Below, in pieces: positions 1 to 39,844 of a stretch of DNA of 64,000 nucleotides. The first letter of the stretch is position 1; each line of letters starts with the position of its first letter. The DNA is from Roseibacillus sp. GTDB lineage: Bacteria > Verrucomicrobiota > Verrucomicrobiia > Verrucomicrobiales > Akkermansiaceae. Position numbers and translations under genes: made by a program. Location of the stretch: assembly GCA_051251855.1 (NCBI GenBank), contig JBPOGI010000002.1, positions 448,001-512,000 of the forward strand, in the 5' to 3' direction. The notes below the pieces were generated by a model that was not told where the DNA came from, ran no database searches, and worked only from the letters and a program-made list of their open reading frames with translations.

Positions 1-294
1 AGGAAGGACGAGACCGGCGGCCCAGATAAGAACTGCAGCAACAATACCGTCGATGAGGCCTGCCAAAATCCGCTGAGGCAGGAGGGTTTCGGAATATTCT
101 ATCGAGGAGATTTTTTCTTCTTCGGCGGGGGCTGGCTTGGTAACGGCAGTCTCCATTGCTCCCGTCTCGACAGCAGAAATAGGGGGGCCGGAACTCGCTC
201 GGTCAAGGTTGGGAGCGGGAATGTTAGGCTTGGGAATACTAGGCTGGGGGATATTGGGTTTAGGAATATCCGGAGTCGGAGTAGAGTCGCTCAT
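1..294 (-). CDS. RDD-family membrane protein, N-terminal part (runs off window start)
   Basis: Not in ORF track. ATG at 294 opens MSDSTPTPDIPKPNIPQPSIPKPNIPAPN...LLPQRILAGLIDGIVAAVLIWAAGLVLP: Pro-rich N-terminus, then the R..A.LID start of an RDD domain. Confidence 0.75.
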   Translation of the reverse strand, partial: MSDSTPTPDIPKPNIPQPSIPKPNIPAPNLDRASSGPPISAVETGAMETAVTKPAPAEEEKISSIEYSETLLPQRILAGLIDGIVAAVLIWAAGLVLP

Positions 295-509
295 TGGCAG
301 TTAGAACAGCGAATTGAGAAGGGCGCGTCTATCTCTTTTATACGAATTGAAGACTTAATTTGAATTTCACCTCCTGATGTATATGCTATGCATTCTCAGG
401 GGATTTAAAAGGTAGATTCTCGCTGGACAAATAGTTCTCGAGAGGTGCTCTTGATTTAGCGGGAAAGAGCCGAACGAGTGGAGTCGAATTTTCTGCGGGA
501 GACTTTTCA

Positions 510-2723
510 CTAAGGGAGCCACTTGGATTTTCGAGGTTGGCTCTCTCTTTCAGGTAGGACCTGGGTCTTTGCCCAATCGTCACCAAGTCGTTTGCCTTTG
601 CTCTCTTCATCTTCGCGAACGTAAAGAATGGCAAACTCGATGGGAGCGACAAGCCATGAGAGATTTCGCAGGAGTCCAGTTTTGTAGTTCCCGGAAAGAC
701 TTCGGTTGTTGCGGTTGACGGTCCGAAGTTTCATGAATTTCTTCCCGATGCTTTGGCCGTTGAGGATTCCTAGGGAATCTTTGGTAAGAAGGTAGAGGGC
801 GGCGAACACAAAGGGCAAGACGCGAGGAGGGTTGGGGAAGAGGAGCAAACCTAAGACAAAAAAGGAACTAGCGACACCAACGTCGATGAGGGCGGCAAAA
901 GAGCGGGAGCGAAAGAGGGAGGAATGTTGCTCGCTTTGTAAATCGGGAGGGTTCTCTTCCTCTGTGGCGAGAGAGTTGTCTTCCGCGAAAGCTGGAGAGG
1001 AGAGTTTTACGACTTGGGTCGATTGTTCTTGGGATAGAGAGCAGGCCGCGAGCGGTTCTTCTGGGAGAGAGGGGGCTTGGTTTTCCTCTGCTGGAGGGGA
1101 GGGCTGGTTGGAAGAAGCTGCGATGTCGCGGTCTCTCGTCTCTAACTGCAGAGAAGGAGGGGTGGCAGGTAAGATGTCCTTCGCGGTGAAGGGGGACTTG
1201 CTTTCGACTGGCGAGGTCTGCGTTTCTAAGTGAGGGGGCTGGCTCTCATCTTCGATGAACCTAAGCGGGTCAGCAGAGACTTCCCTCTTCGTAGGAAGGT
1301 CACAGAAAGGGGGAGTAGTGGGCGCGATGAGAGTGTCGTCGTCTCCTGTAGAATCGTTGGGTGGCTGTGCGTTTTTCAGCTGGAAAGTCGCGGAACCAGT
1401 GGGGGCCTTGCTTTCGGAAGGAGAGGTGTTATTGATGGACTGAAAGAGCGAGTTGCCTCCTTCGGTTTGTAGTCTGGAAGGGGAGGCGTTCTTGTCTTTA
1501 GGTCCCCTCAAGCCCTCTTTGGGAGCAGCTTCCGAGGAAGGAGGATTTTGAGGTGAATGGGAGTGTTTGTTGTTATCTAGAATGACGGGGCGGTCAGCGA
1601 GAGGGGTATCGCCACTTCGTCTTGATTCTTTTGTAGCTGTGTCGGTTGCTTCAAGAGTCCCATTGTGCTCTTCGTTGGTATGGGGGGGGGCAAAAGAGTC
1701 CCCTTGGACTTTGGTTTTTGACCCGAAGGTCTGGCCTTCCTCGGTTGTGGGAAGAGGTTGAACTGAAGGAGTAGGAGAGTTGGTGTCTCTATCGGGGTTG
1801 ATTTCTTCGACGGAAAAAATACTCGAAGCGAGATGAGCGCTCTCTTTGGGGGCCGTTGGTTCCTCTTTTCGGGCAACTAAGCTTTCGTCTGCTGGAGAGG
1901 TTTCACTCTGTATGAGTCGGCTAGAATGAACATCAGCTGGACTTCGGGTGGTAACGAATTCTTTGGAGGAGTTTTGAGGGTGTTCTTGAGCGGCTTTGTT
2001 GAAGAGAGCTGTTGCGATGAGTCCTATCTGATCGGTGGAGGTGCTCCCGCTGGATTGAGGTGATGTCTCGGAAGAAGGCTCTTCCTGAGTGGCGCTTTCG
2101 GGGGCGGAGAGGGGGCCGAGGACAGGGGCTTGCCGGCCTCGTTCAGAGATGTCAGGAGTTGCTTCCGCTGCAACGAGAGTGTTGTTGTCTTCGTTGTAGG
2201 CGCTGAGTTTTTGTTTGGGTGAGGCTTCTTGGGAGTTGGCCTTTGTTGGGAGAGGGCTTGGGTGAGTTGTGGAGAGTAGAAGGGTGTTAGATGGAGAGCG
2301 CTTTTGGCTTTGGATAGGAAGGCTGGCTTTGAAAAGGTGGAGGGCCGAATTAAAGACTCGAGGTCTGGCAGGGGTGTCGAAGGCTGATGGAGCAGAGGGC
2401 TGCTCTTGAGCTGGCTCGTGCGCGTTGAGCGTCGGCGCTACGAGTTCCTTGGGGTAGGTGGTTTCAAGGAGGAGGGGCGGGGTGGTGTCGGTAGCGTTGT
2501 CGCTGTCGTTTTTAGCGACTTCGATGGACCAGCCGAGCTTGAGGCGTTGGACCATTTCTTCGCTGACTTCGACTTCGATTTCGCCGAGGGGTTCACCTGC
2601 AGGGGTGGCTGGTGCGGGGTCGATGGTTTCGAGGTATCGCTCCTCGTTGGTGATCTTCTTTCCTTTGATTCCCAAGGTCGGCACAGAGATGGTCGCTACC
2701 GCCGAGAAGCGGTTGCGATTCAA
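510..2723 (-). CDS. RDD-family membrane protein with long disordered Pro/Ser/Thr/Glu-rich N-terminus
   Basis: C-terminal RSFAALIDV...GQSIGKKFMKLRTV...LLRN...KRLGDDWAKTQV are RDD motifs; TTG start uncertain. Confidence 0.8.
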   Translation of the reverse strand: MNRNRFSAVATISVPTLGIKGKKITNEERYLETIDPAPATPAGEPLGEIEVEVSEEMVQRLKLGWSIEVAKNDSDNATDTTPPLLLETTYPKELVAPTLNAHEPAQEQPSAPSAFDTPARPRVFNSALHLFKASLPIQSQKRSPSNTLLLSTTHPSPLPTKANSQEASPKQKLSAYNEDNNTLVAAEATPDISERGRQAPVLGPLSAPESATQEEPSSETSPQSSGSTSTDQIGLIATALFNKAAQEHPQNSSKEFVTTRSPADVHSSRLIQSETSPADESLVARKEEPTAPKESAHLASSIFSVEEINPDRDTNSPTPSVQPLPTTEEGQTFGSKTKVQGDSFAPPHTNEEHNGTLEATDTATKESRRSGDTPLADRPVILDNNKHSHSPQNPPSSEAAPKEGLRGPKDKNASPSRLQTEGGNSLFQSINNTSPSESKAPTGSATFQLKNAQPPNDSTGDDDTLIAPTTPPFCDLPTKREVSADPLRFIEDESQPPHLETQTSPVESKSPFTAKDILPATPPSLQLETRDRDIAASSNQPSPPAEENQAPSLPEEPLAACSLSQEQSTQVVKLSSPAFAEDNSLATEEENPPDLQSEQHSSLFRSRSFAALIDVGVASSFFVLGLLLFPNPPRVLPFVFAALYLLTKDSLGILNGQSIGKKFMKLRTVNRNNRSLSGNYKTGLLRNLSWLVAPIEFAILYVREDEESKGKRLGDDWAKTQVLPERESQPRKSKWLP

Positions 2724-2780
2724 ACTGGGACCTACCTGCGCCGGACCTGACTCAGGGCTCGCTTGGAGCTTGGTGTCCGG

Positions 2781-5700
2781 TCAAGCGTCGAGGCGTTCGG
2801 CGGCTTTTTGGCCAGCGGTTTTGGCTTCGACCTTGTTCTCCTCGGTGGTGAGACGCATGCCGACGGGCTTGGAGACGCCGAACTCTTCCATGGTGACACC
2901 ATACATGATGTCAGCGCGGTTCATGGTGCGCTTGCTGTGGGTGACGATGATGAACTGGCTCTGGTCGATGAAGGCGTCGAGCACCTTGAGGAAGCGGCCG
3001 ATGTTGGATTCGTCGAGGGGCGCGTCCAGCTCGTCAAGCACACAGAAAGGGCTGGGCTTGACCTTGTAGATGGAGAAGAGGAGGGCGACTGCGGTCATGG
3101 AGCGCTCGCCACCGGAGAGGAGGCTGATGCTCTGAAGCTTTTTGCCGGGAGGTTTGGCGATGACTTCGATGCCGGATTCGAGGGGGTCGCTTTCGTCGAG
3201 CAGGACAAGGTCGGCTTTGCCTTGTTCGCCGAACAAAAGCTTAAACATATCGCGGAAGTTCTTGCGCACGGTGGCGAAGGTTGCAGCGAAGCGTTTGGTG
3301 GTTTCGTCGTTGATTTTAGCAATGACTTCGAGGAGCTCGGTCTTGGAGTTGACGAGGTCTTGGTGCTGGGTGACGACAAAGTTGTGGCGCTCTTCGAGTT
3401 CTTCGAATTCTTCGATGGCGTCGACGTTGACGGGGCCCATGGAATCGAGCTTGCGCTTGAGTTCCGTGACGAGAGTTTCGACGAGCTTCCAATCGGGGCC
3501 TGCGACTTCGAGTTCGGGGATGGAGTCGTCGTCGTTAGCCTCAGTGAGCGCCTCGACTGGCGGGGTGTCGGGAGTGTCTGGTAGTTCAATGCCGCGAGCT
3601 TTTGCCTTTTGCTCATTGATGCAAGTGAGGAGGGCGTGAGCATCGGGGCGGAAGAATTCGAGCTCGATCTGGTGGCGCTCCATGACCGCTTCTTCGAGGT
3701 TCTCGAGTTTGAGGCGAACTTTGGTGTGAGCTACTTCTTCACGTCCTCGGCGTTCGGTCGCTTTGTGGATGCGAGATCGGATGGAGGAGAGTTCGGTTTC
3801 TTTTTCCTCGATGGCGGTGCGGAGCTGCAAGCGACGTTCGTCGAAGCCGGTGAGGTCCTTCTCCAGTTCAGTGGCGGCGTCTTGGTTTTCGAGCATTTCC
3901 ATCTCGAGGGTGCTGTCGTCTTCGCAGTCGTTACCGATGCGGTTTTGGAAATCGACGATTTCAGCCTCACGCTTGACCATGAGGTTGCTCAGCTCGTCGA
4001 TTCGGCTTTGCATCGGGCGCTGTTGGTCCTGCTCGGACTGGTGGGCGCGGCGCTCGACAGCGAGTTCGGTTTGGACTTCGTTGAGTCTTTCGCTTTGTTC
4101 TTGTAAGCGCTGTTCAAGGCCGTCGGAGTCGTTTTGGAGGTCGGCCAGTTCGTTTTCGAAGATACTTACTTGGCCTTGCGCAGTGATGAATTCTGCTTCG
4201 CGGCTGGCGCGGGAATCGGTGGCGCTTTGAACGCGGTTGCCGGTGTTTTCGCGCTCGGATTGGAGTCGCTCAAGCTTACCTTCGAGGTTTTTGATCTCGC
4301 GCTCGGCGAGGGAGGTCTGGCCTTGTGCTTGAGAGACTTCGAGGCGGACTTCGTTGAGTCGGCTCTTGCACTGCTCCACTTCTTCGCGGGCGGCGTAGGA
4401 CTGAGCGTCGAGCTCTTCTACCTTTTCGCGCTCGGCGGCGAGGTCTTCTTCGAGCTGGGTGACTTCTTTAGCGAGGGCTTCGACTTCGTTCTGACGCTTG
4501 AGGACGGAGTTCCCGTCGCCCTCGGATTGGCCGCCACGGAGAATGCCGTTGGGGAAGAAGAGTTCGCCGGCAGCGGTGACGATGGTGATGTCGCCGAAGG
4601 ACTTGCGTAGCTCGGCGGCGACTTTGCGGTCGGGGACGATGAGGGTTTTCTCGAGGAGAGTTGAGACGAGGTCGGTGACGGCGTGGTCGGTTTTCACGGC
4701 ATCGGCGGCCCAGCAGAGGGCGCCTTTGGGGACGGCTTCGATTTGGTGCGCTTTGTCGAGGCCAGCGAAGTCCTTGGGAAGGAGGGCGACTTTACCGAGC
4801 TTTTTGTTGACTAGGCGGTCGATGATTTCTTCTGCAAAGTCGCTGTCTTTGACGAGGACGGCTTGCAGGGTGTCACCGAGGACTGCTTCAATGGCGACGG
4901 CGTATTCGTCGTCCACCTTGAGTCGGCTCGCGAGAACGCCATCGACTCCGGTGCGAAAGAGGTCGGGGTCGTCGAGTCCCTTGAGGACTTCTTTGGTTCC
5001 TTTGAGCAGACCTTCGCCGTTTTCGAGAACTTGCTGGAGGACATCGAGTCGGGACTGCTTTCCTGTGAAAGTGCGGTGAAGTTCGTCGGAGGCTTTCTTG
5101 GCTGCGTCGAGGTCGCCACGATTGTGTTGGTGCGCGCGCTCGGCGGTTTCGAGTGCTTCAGTGAGATCGGCTTGGCGAGTCTGAAGATCACTAAAAGCGC
5201 CGTTGGCGGTGTCTTCGCGTTCTTTCGCCTGGGCGAGTTCGTGCGCAAGGCGTTGTTCTTCTTCTTCAAGCTGCTTGGCACGCTCGCGGCTGGCTTCGGC
5301 TTGGGCGAGATCGGATTCGATTTTTGCCTGAATGGTGGCAGCGAGTGTGCGGGTGGTTTCGGCTTTGCGCCGAGTGTCACGCAACTGGGCGTTGAGTGTG
5401 TCGCGGGCGGCTCGGGCGGAGGTCACCGCCTCTTGTTGCTCGGCGACGGCTTCTTCGCTGGTGGCGATGCGCTGCTGGCGTTCTTCGCTTTGGGTTTGAG
5501 ATTCGGCGAAGTCGAACTGCTGTTGGTTGAGGCGTGCTTTCGTTTCCTCGATTTCGACACGGTGCTGTTCGATGCGCTTGTTAAGTTCGTTGCGGCGCTC
5601 TTCGTTGAAGCCCATGCGGGATTGCGCAGAGTCGGCGGCGGAGCGGTGCGAGGAGATTTGTTGGCGAAGGTCGGAGAGCTCGCTTTCGAGTTCCTGCGAG

Positions 5701-6524
5701 GCGTCGCGAGATTCAGTGACCGCTTTCTCGAAGGCTGGAAGTTCGATCTCGAGACAGTCGACTTCGTTTTCAAGGGACTTGAGATTGGTTTCGAGCTCGG
5801 ACTCGCTCGCTTTGAACTCAGTCCAGTTCTTGTGCGAAAGGTGGGTGTCGAGAATGTGAACCGAACTAGAGAGCTCTTTGTAGCGGCGGGCCTTGGAAAC
5901 TTGGCGCTTGAGAGAGTTCATGCGGCGCTCTTGCTCGGCAATGACGTCGCCGGTGCGGAGGAGGTTGGCCTCGGTGTATTCCAGTTTGCGAAGGGCTTCC
6001 TTCTTGTCCTTCTTGAACTTGGTGATGCCGGCGGCTTCCTCGAAGACGGCGCGGCGTTCTTCGGGCTTGGAGGAGAGGATTTGGTCGATCTGACCCTGGG
6101 CCATGATGGAGTAGGCGGAGCGTCCGATGCCGGTGTCCATGAAGAGCTCGTGCACATCGCGCAGGCGGCAGGCTTTGTCGTTGATGCGATACTCGGATTT
6201 GCCATCGCGGAAGACACGGCGGGTAATGGCGACTTCGTTGAACTCGGTTTTGAGCGCGACTTCGCAATCAGCCATGGTCATGATGACCTCGGCCATGTTG
6301 TGGGGCTTGCGACGGTCGGTGCCGTTGAAGATGACGTCGGCCATTTCGCCACCACGGAGGGCTTTGGCGGAGGTCTCGCCGAGGACCCAACGGATGGCGT
6401 CGACGACGTTAGATTTGCCGCAGCCATTGGGGCCAACGATGCCGGTGACGCCTGTGTCGAATTCGAAATGGGTTTTATCGGCGAACGACTTGAAGCCTTG
6501 GATATCGAGGGATTTAAGGTACAT
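2781..6524 (-). CDS. smc: Chromosome segregation protein SMC
   Basis: MYLKSLDIQGFKSF, Walker A GPNGCGKSN, coiled coils and hinge, LSGGE signature, Walker B VLDELDAPLD; start moved to the ATG at 6524. Confidence 0.97.
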   Translation of the reverse strand: MYLKSLDIQGFKSFADKTHFEFDTGVTGIVGPNGCGKSNVVDAIRWVLGETSAKALRGGEMADVIFNGTDRRKPHNMAEVIMTMADCEVALKTEFNEVAITRRVFRDGKSEYRINDKACRLRDVHELFMDTGIGRSAYSIMAQGQIDQILSSKPEERRAVFEEAAGITKFKKDKKEALRKLEYTEANLLRTGDVIAEQERRMNSLKRQVSKARRYKELSSSVHILDTHLSHKNWTEFKASESELETNLKSLENEVDCLEIELPAFEKAVTESRDASQELESELSDLRQQISSHRSAADSAQSRMGFNEERRNELNKRIEQHRVEIEETKARLNQQQFDFAESQTQSEERQQRIATSEEAVAEQQEAVTSARAARDTLNAQLRDTRRKAETTRTLAATIQAKIESDLAQAEASRERAKQLEEEEQRLAHELAQAKEREDTANGAFSDLQTRQADLTEALETAERAHQHNRGDLDAAKKASDELHRTFTGKQSRLDVLQQVLENGEGLLKGTKEVLKGLDDPDLFRTGVDGVLASRLKVDDEYAVAIEAVLGDTLQAVLVKDSDFAEEIIDRLVNKKLGKVALLPKDFAGLDKAHQIEAVPKGALCWAADAVKTDHAVTDLVSTLLEKTLIVPDRKVAAELRKSFGDITIVTAAGELFFPNGILRGGQSEGDGNSVLKRQNEVEALAKEVTQLEEDLAAEREKVEELDAQSYAAREEVEQCKSRLNEVRLEVSQAQGQTSLAEREIKNLEGKLERLQSERENTGNRVQSATDSRASREAEFITAQGQVSIFENELADLQNDSDGLEQRLQEQSERLNEVQTELAVERRAHQSEQDQQRPMQSRIDELSNLMVKREAEIVDFQNRIGNDCEDDSTLEMEMLENQDAATELEKDLTGFDERRLQLRTAIEEKETELSSIRSRIHKATERRGREEVAHTKVRLKLENLEEAVMERHQIELEFFRPDAHALLTCINEQKAKARGIELPDTPDTPPVEALTEANDDDSIPELEVAGPDWKLVETLVTELKRKLDSMGPVNVDAIEEFEELEERHNFVVTQHQDLVNSKTELLEVIAKINDETTKRFAATFATVRKNFRDMFKLLFGEQGKADLVLLDESDPLESGIEVIAKPPGKKLQSISLLSGGERSMTAVALLFSIYKVKPSPFCVLDELDAPLDESNIGRFLKVLDAFIDQSQFIIVTHSKRTMNRADIMYGVTMEEFGVSKPVGMRLTTEENKVEAKTAGQKAAERLDA

Positions 6525-6585
6525 GAGGAACTTGCCCCCTATCCTGAGGAATTCGCTCTCATTTCGCAAGCAAACGGGCTTTCAT

Positions 6586-6656
6586 GTCCACATTTAGTAG
6601 TGTTTTTTAAAATTTATACCAGATATTGATAAGCGAGGCTTAGGGGTTGTGAATAA
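6586..6656 (-). promoter_or_regulatory. Tandem NrdR-like boxes and a DnaA box upstream of smc
   Basis: Minus strand: TTATTCACA (6648-6656), CAATATCTGGT (starts 6628) and CTAAATGTGGA (starts 6597); the last two are 31 bp apart. Confidence 0.55.
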
Positions 6657-35983: not shown

Positions 35984-36018
35984 AAAAAAACGGCCTTCGG
36001 GGTCTCCCGAAAGCCGTT
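35984..36018 (-). terminator. Rho-independent terminator
   Basis: Minus strand AACGGCTTTCGGG-AGA-CCCCGAAGGCCG-TTTTTTT after the gene ending at 36043. Confidence 0.8.
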
Positions 36019-36042: not shown

Positions 36043-36744
36043 CTACTCGGTCATTTCTTTGAGGAGAGCTTGGCTGTGGTCAGACAAGTTCTCGAGGGGA
36101 TAGGTGGTGTTCTTTCCATTGGCGAGTTGAAAGACGACGTTGAGATCATCAACGGAAACGACAGCGGCGGTGATGGTCTTGCCTTGGACGTTGGTCCAGG
36201 CGCGGCTCTCGATGAGGAGGCTGTTCTCTGAATTTTCAGAATACCTTTCATCGGTCTCTACCGCGGTAACTTCACCATGGAGGAGGGAAGGGTCGTCTTT
36301 AATCTGCTTTCTCACTTCGCGAACCAGCTTTTTGATAGAGTCGCTGGTGGCGTTGTCTGCACTGAATCCTGCGATGGGCTTGGTGCCGTCCGTATTGGTG
36401 ATGACCACAAAGGGAAGCAATTTTTTTGGTCCCTGAATGACCTTGGTAAGTTCGCTGGGGATGCGCCCGTGACGAGCTGTGTCTTTCGACTTTCTATCGA
36501 TAAGGACAAAGACACCTGTGGACTTAAATGCATCGAAAGTCGCCGAACCGACGACAAAGGATTTTCCTCATGCAAGATCCAGTCATGTATCGACGAAGAT
36601 GAGGGGCTTTTCTTGTTCCGTGGCGTAGGCTTTGGCTTCTTCGAGCTCGGCAAGAGGATAGGATCTACGCGGAATATCTAGTTCTGCAAAGGCAGAGATA
36701 GAAGCCGCGGCCGAGATGAATAGCAGTGTGGCTAATGATTTCAT
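36043..36744 (-). CDS. Secreted thioredoxin-like plus SHD1 protein with two in-frame TGA codons (candidate selenoprotein; pseudogene not excluded)
   Basis: One frame: MKSLATLLFISAAASISAFA...AKAYATEQEKPLIFVDT-TGA-LDLA-TGA-GKSFVVG...LLPFVVITNTDG...RAWTNVQGKTITAAV...YPLENLSDHSQ; no other stops. Confidence 0.75.
36539..36555 (-). promoter_or_regulatory. SECIS-like hairpin after second TGA
   Basis: GTCGTCG-GTT-CGGCGAC; loop starts with GU 19 nt after TGA2 and 34 nt after TGA1. Confidence 0.6.
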
Positions 36745-36847
36745 CTCTTTCGTTATGAAATCATTTTTGATTTCAGCAAGAAAAAAGAAGAGGCTGACTG
36801 AGGGGTGGTCAGTGAGTTGCAGCACCTAGAAAAAGGAAAGAGGAGGG

Positions 36848-37909: not shown

Positions 37910-39271
37910 CTATTGAATGAGGCGGGTCTTGGGGTATTGGGCCTGCCAACCGAACCAGAAGGATTGGTGGGAGGGGTAACGAGGGAGGGTTTGGTCTGAT
38001 TTTTCGAGCTTTAGGGAGTTTTCGGTGAGGGTCCAGTTTTGACCGTCTTGGTCCTGCAACGTTTCCCAGCCATCCCATTTTTTGAAGACTTGGCCTGAAG
38101 TTTGATAGACTCTGCTCTCACCTTGAGGGGTTGTGATGATGACGATTTCGTCGCTTCCAACTTTGGTCGAGAAGAGAGGGGTCTTCTTGAGGAATTCGGT
38201 GTCGATGGCGACTGCGGAGTTGGGTTTATTGTTTCTCAGTGCAACAATTTCGCGCTTGTTGGGGAGTCTCTTATCAAGCTGAGGCACTTGGAACATCAGT
38301 CGGTCGGTTTCGAAGTAGCTTTCATAGGCCGCGCCTTCGTCGTAGTCTCTTTGGTGGCCAGTTTCTAAGGAAAGAGTAGTTGTTTTGGGGTGTCGCTTCT
38401 TCCAATCGCCCCAAGTGGTGGTGACCACGCTTCTTCGCTCGAGGGCGATGTCTTTGTCAACGAGGGGTCCGATAACGGGCTTGCCATGCAAGGTGCTCCA
38501 AAGTGAGGAGGTTGCTTTATCATACATGAGCTTGTTCGAACGATAGAGAAAGCCACTGGTCCCGAGTTGATGGAGGGTGCCTTTGTGTTGTGTTTCATAC
38601 AGAACCACAGTGCCACAAAGCGTTCAGTAGACGCCGGCGAGGGGGATGCCTTGGATGGTGTCGACGAACATCTCGTGCCAGGCGAGAATGCGCTTGGGGT
38701 AGGCGCGCGCTTCGCCTTCAACCTCAATGCCAAAGACGACGTCGCTGTCAGCTAGGTAGTCGGCGGAAGCTACTGAAATCATTCTGGGGTTTCGAAGGGG
38801 AGGAATTCCGTCTTGGAGAACTCCTCCCCAGACAACTTCGTCAAGCCGGATGATGGCTTTGTGTTTGTTGTCGAAGTAGTTTGCGAATTTTGGGTCTATC
38901 CGTTGATAGAGTTCTGATTTGAAAGAGGAATAGTTTGGTGAGGTTTGGTAGTCTTGAGACCAAAGCCAGTTTTTCCAGGCATCGCGGTCGTCGCCGAAGC
39001 TTTCGTCAGTTTGGGCGTGGAGGAAATCAAAGAGCTTTCGTGCGAGGAGTCGATCGCGGTTGAGACGCTGTGTTTCAAGAATCATGGGGACCTGAGCGGT
39101 ACTCCAACGGGCGGCGAGAGACTTTTTTGCCTTGTCCCACTGGTAGGGATCATCAGCGAGGCCTAGATAAAGGTCTGCGATGGGAGCGTTGGTGGTTTTG
39201 GCGTCTTGAGAGGGCGAGCAACTGACCAACAGCAGTAAGGTCGCGCTCACAAGAGGGGGAATCGGTCTCAT
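37910..39271 (-). CDS. DUF3179-domain lipoprotein, predicted selenoprotein (in-frame TGA 38624-38626)
   Basis: ORFs 38624..39271 and 37910..38608 join in frame: DGIPPL..P...ARAYP.RIL.WHE...GVY-TGA-TLCGT...GTSGFLYRSNKLMYD..T.SLW...FWFGW; lipobox LVSC. Confidence 0.88.
38581..38620 (-). promoter_or_regulatory. SECIS-like hairpin of the DUF3179 gene
   Basis: CTTTGTG/CACAAAG, TGTG/CACA and TTC/GAA stems; loop TGTAT begins 22 nt after the TGA. Confidence 0.65.
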
Positions 39272-39394: not shown

Positions 39395-39844
39395 ATGAGT
39401 AATTTTGACTTGCGGGGGAATCCTGCCTTTCCCTGGCACAATGACGACAACAATCCGTGCACTTCTTGTGGAGCCTGTTGTGCCCACTTTCGAGTTTCTT
39501 TCTATCAGGGAGAGAGTGCGGAGTCTCCTTGGGGGACGGTGCCGGCGAAGTTGACTGAGTCGCTGACTCACCATCGTCTATTTATGAAGGGGACGAATCA
39601 GAAGAAGCCGCGTTGTGTGGCGTTGCACGGTGAGATCGGAAAGTGTGTGGGGTGTTCGATTCATGCGGAGCGGGCTTCGGTGTGCCGGGAGTTTCCGCCG
39701 TCGTGGGAGAATGGTGTGCATAATCCGGACTGTGATCGAGCAAGAGCAGCGCATGGGATGTTGCCGTTAGAGAATCCGGAGATTGTTCCCTTCGAGCCTG
39801 ATGATCTACCGACGGGGCCGGTGTTGCCGAAGAGAGCGGCGTAG
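39395..39844 (+). CDS. YkgJ-family cysteine-cluster (Zn/Fe-chelating) protein
   Basis: CTSCGACC, RCVAL.G.IG..V.CSIH..R.SVCREF, CDRAR. Confidence 0.9.
   Translation: MSNFDLRGNPAFPWHNDDNNPCTSCGACCAHFRVSFYQGESAESPWGTVPAKLTESLTHHRLFMKGTNQKKPRCVALHGEIGKCVGCSIHAERASVCREFPPSWENGVHNPDCDRARAAHGMLPLENPEIVPFEPDDLPTGPVLPKRAA

Follow-up and report, generated by a model that had tools for sequence, protein, structure and literature searches.

Selenocysteine (Sec) codons are normally recognised by cysteine at the same place in homologs. Proteins with two Sec residues have precedents in UxxU families and in one UxxxxU family, an unrelated rhodanese/DsbD fusion, so the double-Sec principle is not new; the SelL diselenide is reportedly a further UxxU example, and the UxxxxU protein, TsoB, is said to have its source in a 2025 paper by Haft and Tolstoy. 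PMC13188914 catalogues 119 families from prokaryotes, with UxxU families and TsoB among them. Its Table 1 gives as UxxU examples a Prx-like thiol:disulfide oxidoreductase along with a putative mercuric reductase and the FmdB family, and has TsoB (NF045694) as rhodanese/DsbD fusion-like with the motif UxxxxU. For UXXU Group 4 hydrogenases, the accessible text of PMC13582414 proposes a single SECIS for both UGAs. Among single-Sec proteins, comparison was made with the UxxC thioredoxin-fold selenoproteins of the Trx, thiol-disulfide isomerase-like and TlpA/redoxin rows of PMC13188914 Table 1 and of the GOS 'Trx-like' groups (accessible text of PMC2398784). The PMC13188914 list has no thioredoxin-fold UxxxxU entry, and neither Verrucomicrob- nor SHD1 occurs in its main text.

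The locus compared here with these systems lies in a 64,000-nucleotide stretch of Roseibacillus sp. DNA (the window). The stretch belongs to contig C6 of a genome of 4.96 Mb that is 95% complete. The first-pass annotation had joined two open reading frames into one gene for a secreted thioredoxin-like protein with two in-frame UGAs. The joined frame (36043..36744, minus strand) does translate from 36744 to 36043 as 233 codons plus TAG, with TGA at codon 54 (TGA1, 36583..36585, minus strand) and codon 59 (TGA2, 36568..36570, minus strand); the two listed open reading frames are its parts to either side of these codons. Its orthologs, 43-52% identical, align over the full length when read through both TGAs. 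No Cys codon occurs anywhere in the 233-codon frame. The terminator proposed downstream is present as an intrinsic terminator-like hairpin of 13 pairs followed by a T run (35989..36018, minus strand).

The bases at both TGAs were checked in assembled contigs, not raw reads, from 4 of the 10 listed runs. In run X3, another sample of the same study as the possible source runs, one 724-nt contig covered 36126-36849 at depth 1833 and agreed at both codons, with 0 differences overall. Run X5, from another study and at depth 2.4, matched 36561-36828 with 0 differences; its contig ends a few bases beyond TGA2, short of the 31-base rule for bridging, and was not counted as spanning that codon. Runs X7 and X8 had no coverage of the TGA codons. 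Assembly error as the source of the TGAs is excluded. Across all six frames of the genome, in-frame TGA-x4-TGA sites number 4055, and an RGTYY hairpin follows 18 nt on at just one of them, the present gene. This is a real, conserved double-TGA gene. Low-depth variant contigs in X3 fell in the SHD1-like coding part (window 36065-36155), with none listed over the TGA codons.

Two genes upstream, with a UbiA-family (menA-like) gene between, a pair of DUF3179 ORFs (Pfam positions 1-61 and 73-292) form a single frame (window 37910-39271, minus strand) with a TGA at 38624-38626 in the context G-V-Y-U-T-L-C. DUF3179 is a listed UxxC/T selenoprotein family; the hairpin scan gave only a weak candidate for this TGA. 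Divergent from the DUF3179 gene is one for a cysteine-rich CxxCxxCC (PF03692) protein (window 39395-39844, plus strand).

The Sec reading in the first-pass annotation had been made to depend on the selenocysteine machinery, and selA, selB, selC (tRNA-Sec) and selD were all found in the genome over cut-off, selD having an in-frame TGA of its own. Among the four ortholog genomes, selA, selB and selC each occur in 4/4 and selD in 3/4, the exception being the 77%-complete one. TGA terminates 451 of 2090 long ORFs of the genome, and RF2 (prfB) was detected over cut-off by a family-model search, a simple pattern search having missed the release factors. The ordinary use of TGA as a stop, together with the presence of RF2, excludes a genome-wide code with UGA as Trp. 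Many other genes of the genome combine a TGA with a hairpin. Candidates at G000:C11:42440, C1:1584111, C8:303832, C1:1812084, C10:234380, C9:31937, C6:711917, C6:712145 and C1:1403243 include an S-W-U-P-P-C thioredoxin-like pair, a peroxiredoxin-like T-P-G-U gene, V-P-G-U-G-P-C, G-G-U-G-G-C and D-T-U-P-P-C genes, an HMA-like gene with two distant TGAs, and fdhA.

A profile search reading through stops detected the parent family in 177 of 401 genomes (a family-level sample plus this genome). It consists of thioredoxin-fold/SHD1-like proteins of Verrucomicrobiales with UxxC or CxxC, predicted to be exported (e.g. L009-L014, L046-L075 and L106-L127). Of 77 non-redundant loci, 59 have one TGA, 11 have none and 7 have two. 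In some family members (L020, L123:1-462, P0023, P0031) neither active-site Cys/Sec residue is left. For nine family proteins, matches to Pfam and NCBIfam models all stayed below cut-off, and no Pfam family exceeded its cut-off for the double-TGA protein either. A word-indexed protein search with the read-through protein returned 6 matches of 692 candidates, all short (19-33% of the query) and mostly redoxin-type.

Alignment with a paralog from the same genome (G000:C7:209453-210106, minus strand; 38% identical) indicated which of the two TGAs belongs to the ancestral active site. The paralog reads Y-T-D-P-G-T-T-U-G-P-C and aligns without gaps, with TGA1 opposite Asp and Ser62 opposite the second Cys; TGA2 is thus the counterpart of the family's catalytic Sec, the predicted residue standing at the N-terminal catalytic Cys/Sec position, where the active-site helix starts. 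Compared with this UxxC paralog, the protein has changed most in its active-site segment, while the flanks stay similar. The C7 paralog, with its single TGA in U-G-P-C, lies about 6.8 kb from selB, and a second single-TGA paralog (G000:C10:209622-210275, plus strand) has U-E-D-C. Residues were tallied by column for 73 representatives (75 aligned rows) selected out of 1.84 billion proteins: Cys occupied the TGA2 column in 47 of 57 ungapped rows and the +3 column in 37 of 56. The assignment of TGA2 as Sec, proposed from the window alone, is supported by this tally and by the single TGA at the same place in 59/77 family loci.

At the TGA1 position, D (23), N (11) and E (9) together account for 43 of 57 rows; one row has C, in a shifted alignment, and none has W. 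TGA1 fails the usual Cys/Sec-pair test, its one Cys counterpart being that misaligned row. Three options had been left for this codon: a second Sec served by the same hairpin, Trp readthrough, or a recent TGG>TGA nonsense mutation. Trp readthrough finds no support in the acidic and amide residues of the column, which lacks W, or in the ordinary use of TGA as a stop in the presence of RF2. A related possibility is that TGA2 encodes Sec and TGA1 a different residue, either Cys delivered by SelC*/tRNA-ReC or Trp through near-cognate read-through. In its favour, tRNA-ReC is enriched in genomes with UXXU hydrogenases, where either UGA could be Cys (accessible text of PMC13582414), and a relaxed tRNA scan of the present genome yielded one extra low-score GCA candidate on contig C6. 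The genome has, however, one UCA-anticodon tRNA and one standard-score tRNA-Cys, no W appears at the position, and selection would be expected to favour TGG/TGY over a TGA that has been kept across a tree length of about 2 changes per column. We consider this explanation highly improbable. Ten tRNA genes, several of them with anticodons duplicated elsewhere in the genome, lie within 1.5 kb at G000:C10:114076-115599.

The double-TGA subfamily comprises 8 loci, representing 7 distinct sequences from two genera. The first-pass annotation had called for inspection of orthologs at both positions, and TGA is kept at both in 8/8 loci. Besides the window's gene, members come from genomes G077, G190, G256 and G159, of another Akkermansiaceae genus, and from metagenome contigs L101, L102 and L103, of which L101 is nearly identical to the gene of G077 and L103 is cut by its contig end; 4 of the 7 distinct sequences are thereby from one genus. 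The four genome orthologs were among the matches listed by a profile search reading through stops, and the three metagenome loci were found by peptide patterns omitting the TGA columns. As these searches were blind to the TGA columns, the members were not picked for having TGA. A genus-wide repeat of the search matched 4 of 42 genomes of the orthologs' genus, all with 2 TGA. A pattern scan of genome contigs that required both TGAs returned the same four genomes and was not counted as evidence; its one cyanobacterial match was taken as chance.

Distribution of the subfamily is patchy, with 4/42 genomes in the orthologs' genus and 1/9 in the window's genus. No close ortholog turned up among 60 relatives, nor among the 8 remaining genomes of the window's genus. 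This absence in near relatives had suggested lineage-specific decay, an idea overturned by the orthologs that the profile search found in the other genus. An order sample of 400 contained no new double-TGA member, returning only G077 again, and a phylum sample of 400 and sampled viral contigs contained no further one. In a first metagenome scan with a single protein query, 0 of 244 candidate stretches were confirmed.

The other members share the motif T-U-L-x-x-x-U-G-S-T; with the present gene included, the pattern is T-U54-L-x-x-x-U59-G-x-S/T. The +3 Cys is absent from 7/7 distinct members, with UxxT in 6/7 and UxxS only in the present gene. The UxxS motif assigned by the first-pass annotation therefore stands as regards Sec at TGA2, whereas the subfamily's usual motif is UxxT, itself probably derived from UxxC. 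In a tree of 90 rows (midpoint root; active-site columns kept; L101 standing for G077 and L103 left out), six members formed one clade with support of 100/100 and a stem of 1.12 changes per column, placed among UxxC/CxxC relatives without resolution of the exact sister. The small size of this clade among UxxC/CxxC rows suggests derivation of the subfamily from a UxxC ancestor.

Conservation within the subfamily was concentrated at few codons. Over 199 ungapped codon columns in six sequences, the residue was kept in 59 and the codon in 8; the eight comprise the two TGAs, a single TGG, two codons within the hairpin and three more. Agreement at fourfold third positions ranged from 10/43 to 27/62 across the six sequences, and protein identity downstream of TGA2 was 43-73%. 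Judged from the alignment, TGA1 is under strong selection. A recent TGG>TGA nonsense mutation is refuted by the retention of TGA1 in 8/8 loci across two genera, and a second Sec using the same hairpin emerges as the best reading of the three options.

The subfamily is represented in databases by pieces. Among 1.84 billion representatives it occurs as fragments ending at TGA1 (4) or starting past TGA2 (4), with a piece of the window's own protein in each set, and the whole protein was never found there. Fragments P0063, P0009 and P0013 suggest further members. An alternative is that TGA1 is a true stop, whether in a pseudogene, through assembly error, or at the end of a gene for a 53-residue peptide, the downstream protein then having its own start. 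GenBank lists the N-terminal piece as a hypothetical protein of 49-53 residues, gene callers split the frame, and the 50 codons after TGA2 have a low dicodon coding score (3.0). Yet the contig at depth 1833 showed no difference, and in 8 loci TGA never drifts to TAA or TAG at either site; the true stops of the genes vary (TAG, TAG, TAA, TAA, TAA). Moreover, the downstream part is conserved with no start codon 3' of TGA1 common to all members, and a break at TGA1 would cut the domain after its first core strand. A true stop is accordingly a very remote prospect. A local double frameshift behind the changed loop was also considered and dropped, as the orthologs show the same register.

The hairpin previously noted as GTCGTCG-GTT-CGGCGAC was found at 36555-36539 (36539..36555, minus strand). 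It had been described with a 3-nt loop starting 19 nt past TGA2 and 34 nt past TGA1. That start holds for a 3-nt loop, but 18 and 33 nt are the better count, because most distinct members (5 of 7) carry a 5-nt RGTTC loop that begins with A; in the present gene the loop is GGTTC on a 6-bp stem. Bacterial SECIS criteria, as given in the accessible text of PMC13188914, are a 3-9 nt loop with G in its first two positions, a 4-16 bp stem, a spacing of 16-37 nt and an energy of at most -7.5 kcal/mol. Applied directly, they agree with the hairpin in loop (GGTTC), stem (6 bp), spacing (18 and 33 nt) and energy (-9.2 kcal/mol). Folding energy alone was not significant (z -0.37 to -1.66).

Across the family, the SECIS hairpin was present in 7/7 double-TGA loci, 48/59 single-TGA loci and 0/10 Cys-type loci, and its position in the double-TGA loci is the family's usual place. 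All but one of the 42 cells in the subfamily stem pair, and at one pair C-G (3) alternates with U-A (4) at synonymous positions. The covariation score was reached by 36/500 shuffles, so covariation lends weak support; the stem also codes for conserved residues. Elsewhere in the genome, fdhA and the UxxC paralog have the loop 18 nt from the TGA; the distance is 32 nt for selD and 33 nt for a TlpA-like gene with UxxC. Both spacings seen for TGA2 and TGA1, about 18 and 33 nt, thus also occur in single-UGA genes here. A G-loop hairpin nearer to TGA1 was not found in 6 of 7 members.

A second, tentative hairpin of 3-5 bp that holds most of TGA2 was predicted just 5' of the SECIS (36557..36569, minus strand) in 7/7 members. 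At least 2.5 expected pairs were obtained in 5/7 members, compared with 3/40 single-Sec relatives. Against synonymous shuffles no single member was significant (fractions 0.06-0.33). This small hairpin may perhaps shorten the spacer for decoding of TGA1.

Decoding of two UGAs from one bacterial SECIS had been expected to be very unusual. The arrangement is less unusual than expected, since UxxU families and one UxxxxU family are already listed in Table 1 of PMC13188914, and the same genome contains a second double-TGA gene with one hairpin. That gene, G000:C6:141969 on the minus strand (L138:1646-2665), encodes an exported protein of 339 residues with W-U-P-S-U, and its single hairpin lies 25 and 16 nt from the two TGAs. 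Relatives occur in 22 of 151 genomes. Where the motif pattern matched (9 loci of 15 fetched, this genome's locus included), the motif was UxxU in 7/9, UxxC in 1/9 and CxxC in 1/9. Because this family, too, has two UGAs ahead of one hairpin, shared-hairpin decoding is probably routine in the lineage.

It is very likely that both TGA codons of the present gene are Sec and are decoded with one SECIS. SelB bound to the single hairpin would deliver Sec-tRNA at TGA1, 33 nt away, and five codons later at TGA2, 18 nt away; in the first of these decodings the spacer may be shortened by the small hairpin holding TGA2. Decoding UGA twice while RF2 competes should lower the yield, which was counted against this reading. 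Alternatively, TGA1 may act mainly as a regulatory gate: Sec would be decoded there so that full-length protein depends steeply on selenium supply, and residue 54 would have no chemistry. The lack of Cys in the TGA1 column is compatible with a gate, and two serial UGA decodings would be expected to sharpen selenium dependence. A gate does not account, however, for why the +3 Cys was lost in step, why the T-U-L context is invariant or why the residue sits on the active-site loop, and it appears improbable.

The architecture of the protein was examined by structure prediction. The N-terminus is hydrophobic, ends AFA-E and is the highest hydropathy window of the chain in 5/5 members examined; a cleavable signal peptide ending in AFA, with no lipobox Cys, is predicted for residues 1-20 (36685..36744, minus strand). 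An AlphaFold2 model, built with Cys substituted for Sec on a 113-row alignment dominated by UxxC parents, had a mean pLDDT of 88; in it a disordered linker joins a thioredoxin domain to a small beta domain. The thioredoxin-fold domain (residues 21 to about 155; 36280..36684, minus strand) matched 3ira (Z 11.2, rmsd 3.4 A over 128 residues), DsbH 2ju5 (Z 10.3) and many thioredoxins (Foldseek E 1.4e-4). Pro111 (36412..36414, minus strand), the only invariant column of the 113-sequence alignment, occupies the thioredoxin cis-Pro position, and its region aligns weakly with the glutaredoxin TVP (E 0.064-0.14).

After a flexible acidic linker, residues 178-233 (36046..36213, minus strand) form a predicted SHD1-like domain. 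These C-terminal 56 residues superpose on Sla1 homology domain 1 (2hbp) at 1.6 A rmsd with Z 8.8, and a profile match was obtained at E 0.0008, but the PF03983 cut-off was not reached, the best family member scoring 22.0 bits against 23.7. The Trx-like strand, cis-Pro-like region and SHD1 domain of the first-pass annotation are thus recovered as a predicted thioredoxin fold, an invariant Pro and an SHD1 fold match, both folds by structure and not by Pfam. It is likely, with good confidence, that the chain is exported with its thioredoxin domain tethered to the SHD1-like domain.

In the model, where pLDDT is 85 in the block with residues 54-59, Sec54 directly follows the first core strand and Sec59 caps the active-site helix. 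From these strand-end and helix-cap positions, residues 54 and 59 would mark the two ends of a single six-residue loop. None of the four orthologs examined has more than one Cys, and no Cys is common to all. The genes around the subfamily members vary between loci and do not point to any pathway. In L098 (G077; 37-6612), cysH-like and cysK-like genes of a sulfate-assimilation cluster flank the ortholog, which is on the opposite strand; two other orthologs have a serine carboxypeptidase gene on one side and a release-factor gene on the other.

For the chemistry, we favour a redox pair, chiefly because the gain of Sec54 and the loss of the +3 Cys coincide in all members. Once exported and folded as a thioredoxin domain tethered to its SHD1-like domain, the enzyme would use Sec59 for attack, as in the UxxC parents, and Sec54 would take over the resolving role of the lost Cys62. 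It would alternate between diselenol and Sec54-Sec59 diselenide forms, its targets being small oxidants or oxidised proteins of the envelope, and the SHD1-like domain would serve for docking. This step carries moderate confidence, and the full account including the Sec54-Sec59 pair is held to be reasonably likely. For the most detailed version, the balance is about even: that the active site was rebuilt by a new Sec codon where no Cys stood, that Sec54, lying upstream, forms a diselenide with Sec59 across the six-residue loop and so resolves it, and that one SECIS serves both codons while the small hairpin hides the second UGA as the first is decoded.

Other chemistry could follow from two Sec residues. 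The pair may bind a soft metal or carry selenium or sulfur in the periplasm, or Sec59 alone may act as a UxxS/T peroxidase-like residue tuned by Sec54. The extensive change of the active-site segment between similar flanks and the long stem branch of the clade are consistent with either. U-G-S-T resembles the monothiol UxxT/S motifs of GPx-like and OsmC-like selenoproteins (PMC13188914 Table 1), and one ortholog is embedded, in opposite orientation, in a cluster for sulfate assimilation and cysteine synthesis. That sulfur-gene context is confined to one species, though, and no GSHPx or AhpC-TSA match was obtained for nine family proteins in Pfam at E up to 5. Both versions also have to accommodate the retained invariant Pro and thioredoxin frame, and a gain of Sec54 that exactly matches loss of the resolving Cys in 7/7 members. 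On balance these roles are unlikely, and the Sec54-Sec59 redox pair is preferred.

The locus was then set against the described systems. It shares with the UxxC thioredoxin-fold selenoproteins (PMC13188914 Table 1; GOS 'Trx-like' groups, accessible text of PMC2398784) the fold, the predicted N-terminal catalytic Sec, the Pro and an in-frame SECIS within 16-37 nt. Unlike them, it has Ser/Thr in place of the +3 Cys (7/7) and a second predicted Sec five residues upstream at a D/N/E site. The UxxU proteins likewise have two nearby UGAs ahead of one hairpin; their Secs, however, replace both Cys of CxxC, whereas here the extra Sec lies upstream of the catalytic residue at a non-Cys position. The gene is likened to both of these thioredoxin-fold groups, yet it failed the motif test of each. 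TsoB, also bacterial, has the same five-codon spacing of two predicted Secs but a different architecture, with a 572-position model. That model gave 8 matches in the genome, none of them this gene, and no match in nine family proteins. With the GPx-like and Prx-like UxxT/S selenoproteins the likeness is in the short motif only. Literature searches, mostly of open-access main texts, found no description of the subfamily; supplements and BSepDB, which lay outside those searches, may list members.

TGA1 lacks a Cys counterpart yet appears to be under strong selection, and pipelines relying on Cys pairs would miss it. The gene is short and has no other Cys, and a single-Sec UxxC paralog with the same hairpin position resides in the same genome, so the locus offers a natural test of whether, and how efficiently, one bacterial SECIS can decode two UGAs 15 nt apart. 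The diselenide, if real, would be a thioredoxin active-site geometry not found in the selenoprotein catalogues compared. If the account is true, a Sec was gained without a Cys precursor and, standing on the opposite side of the catalytic residue, took the place of the resolving Cys, which would surprise specialists.
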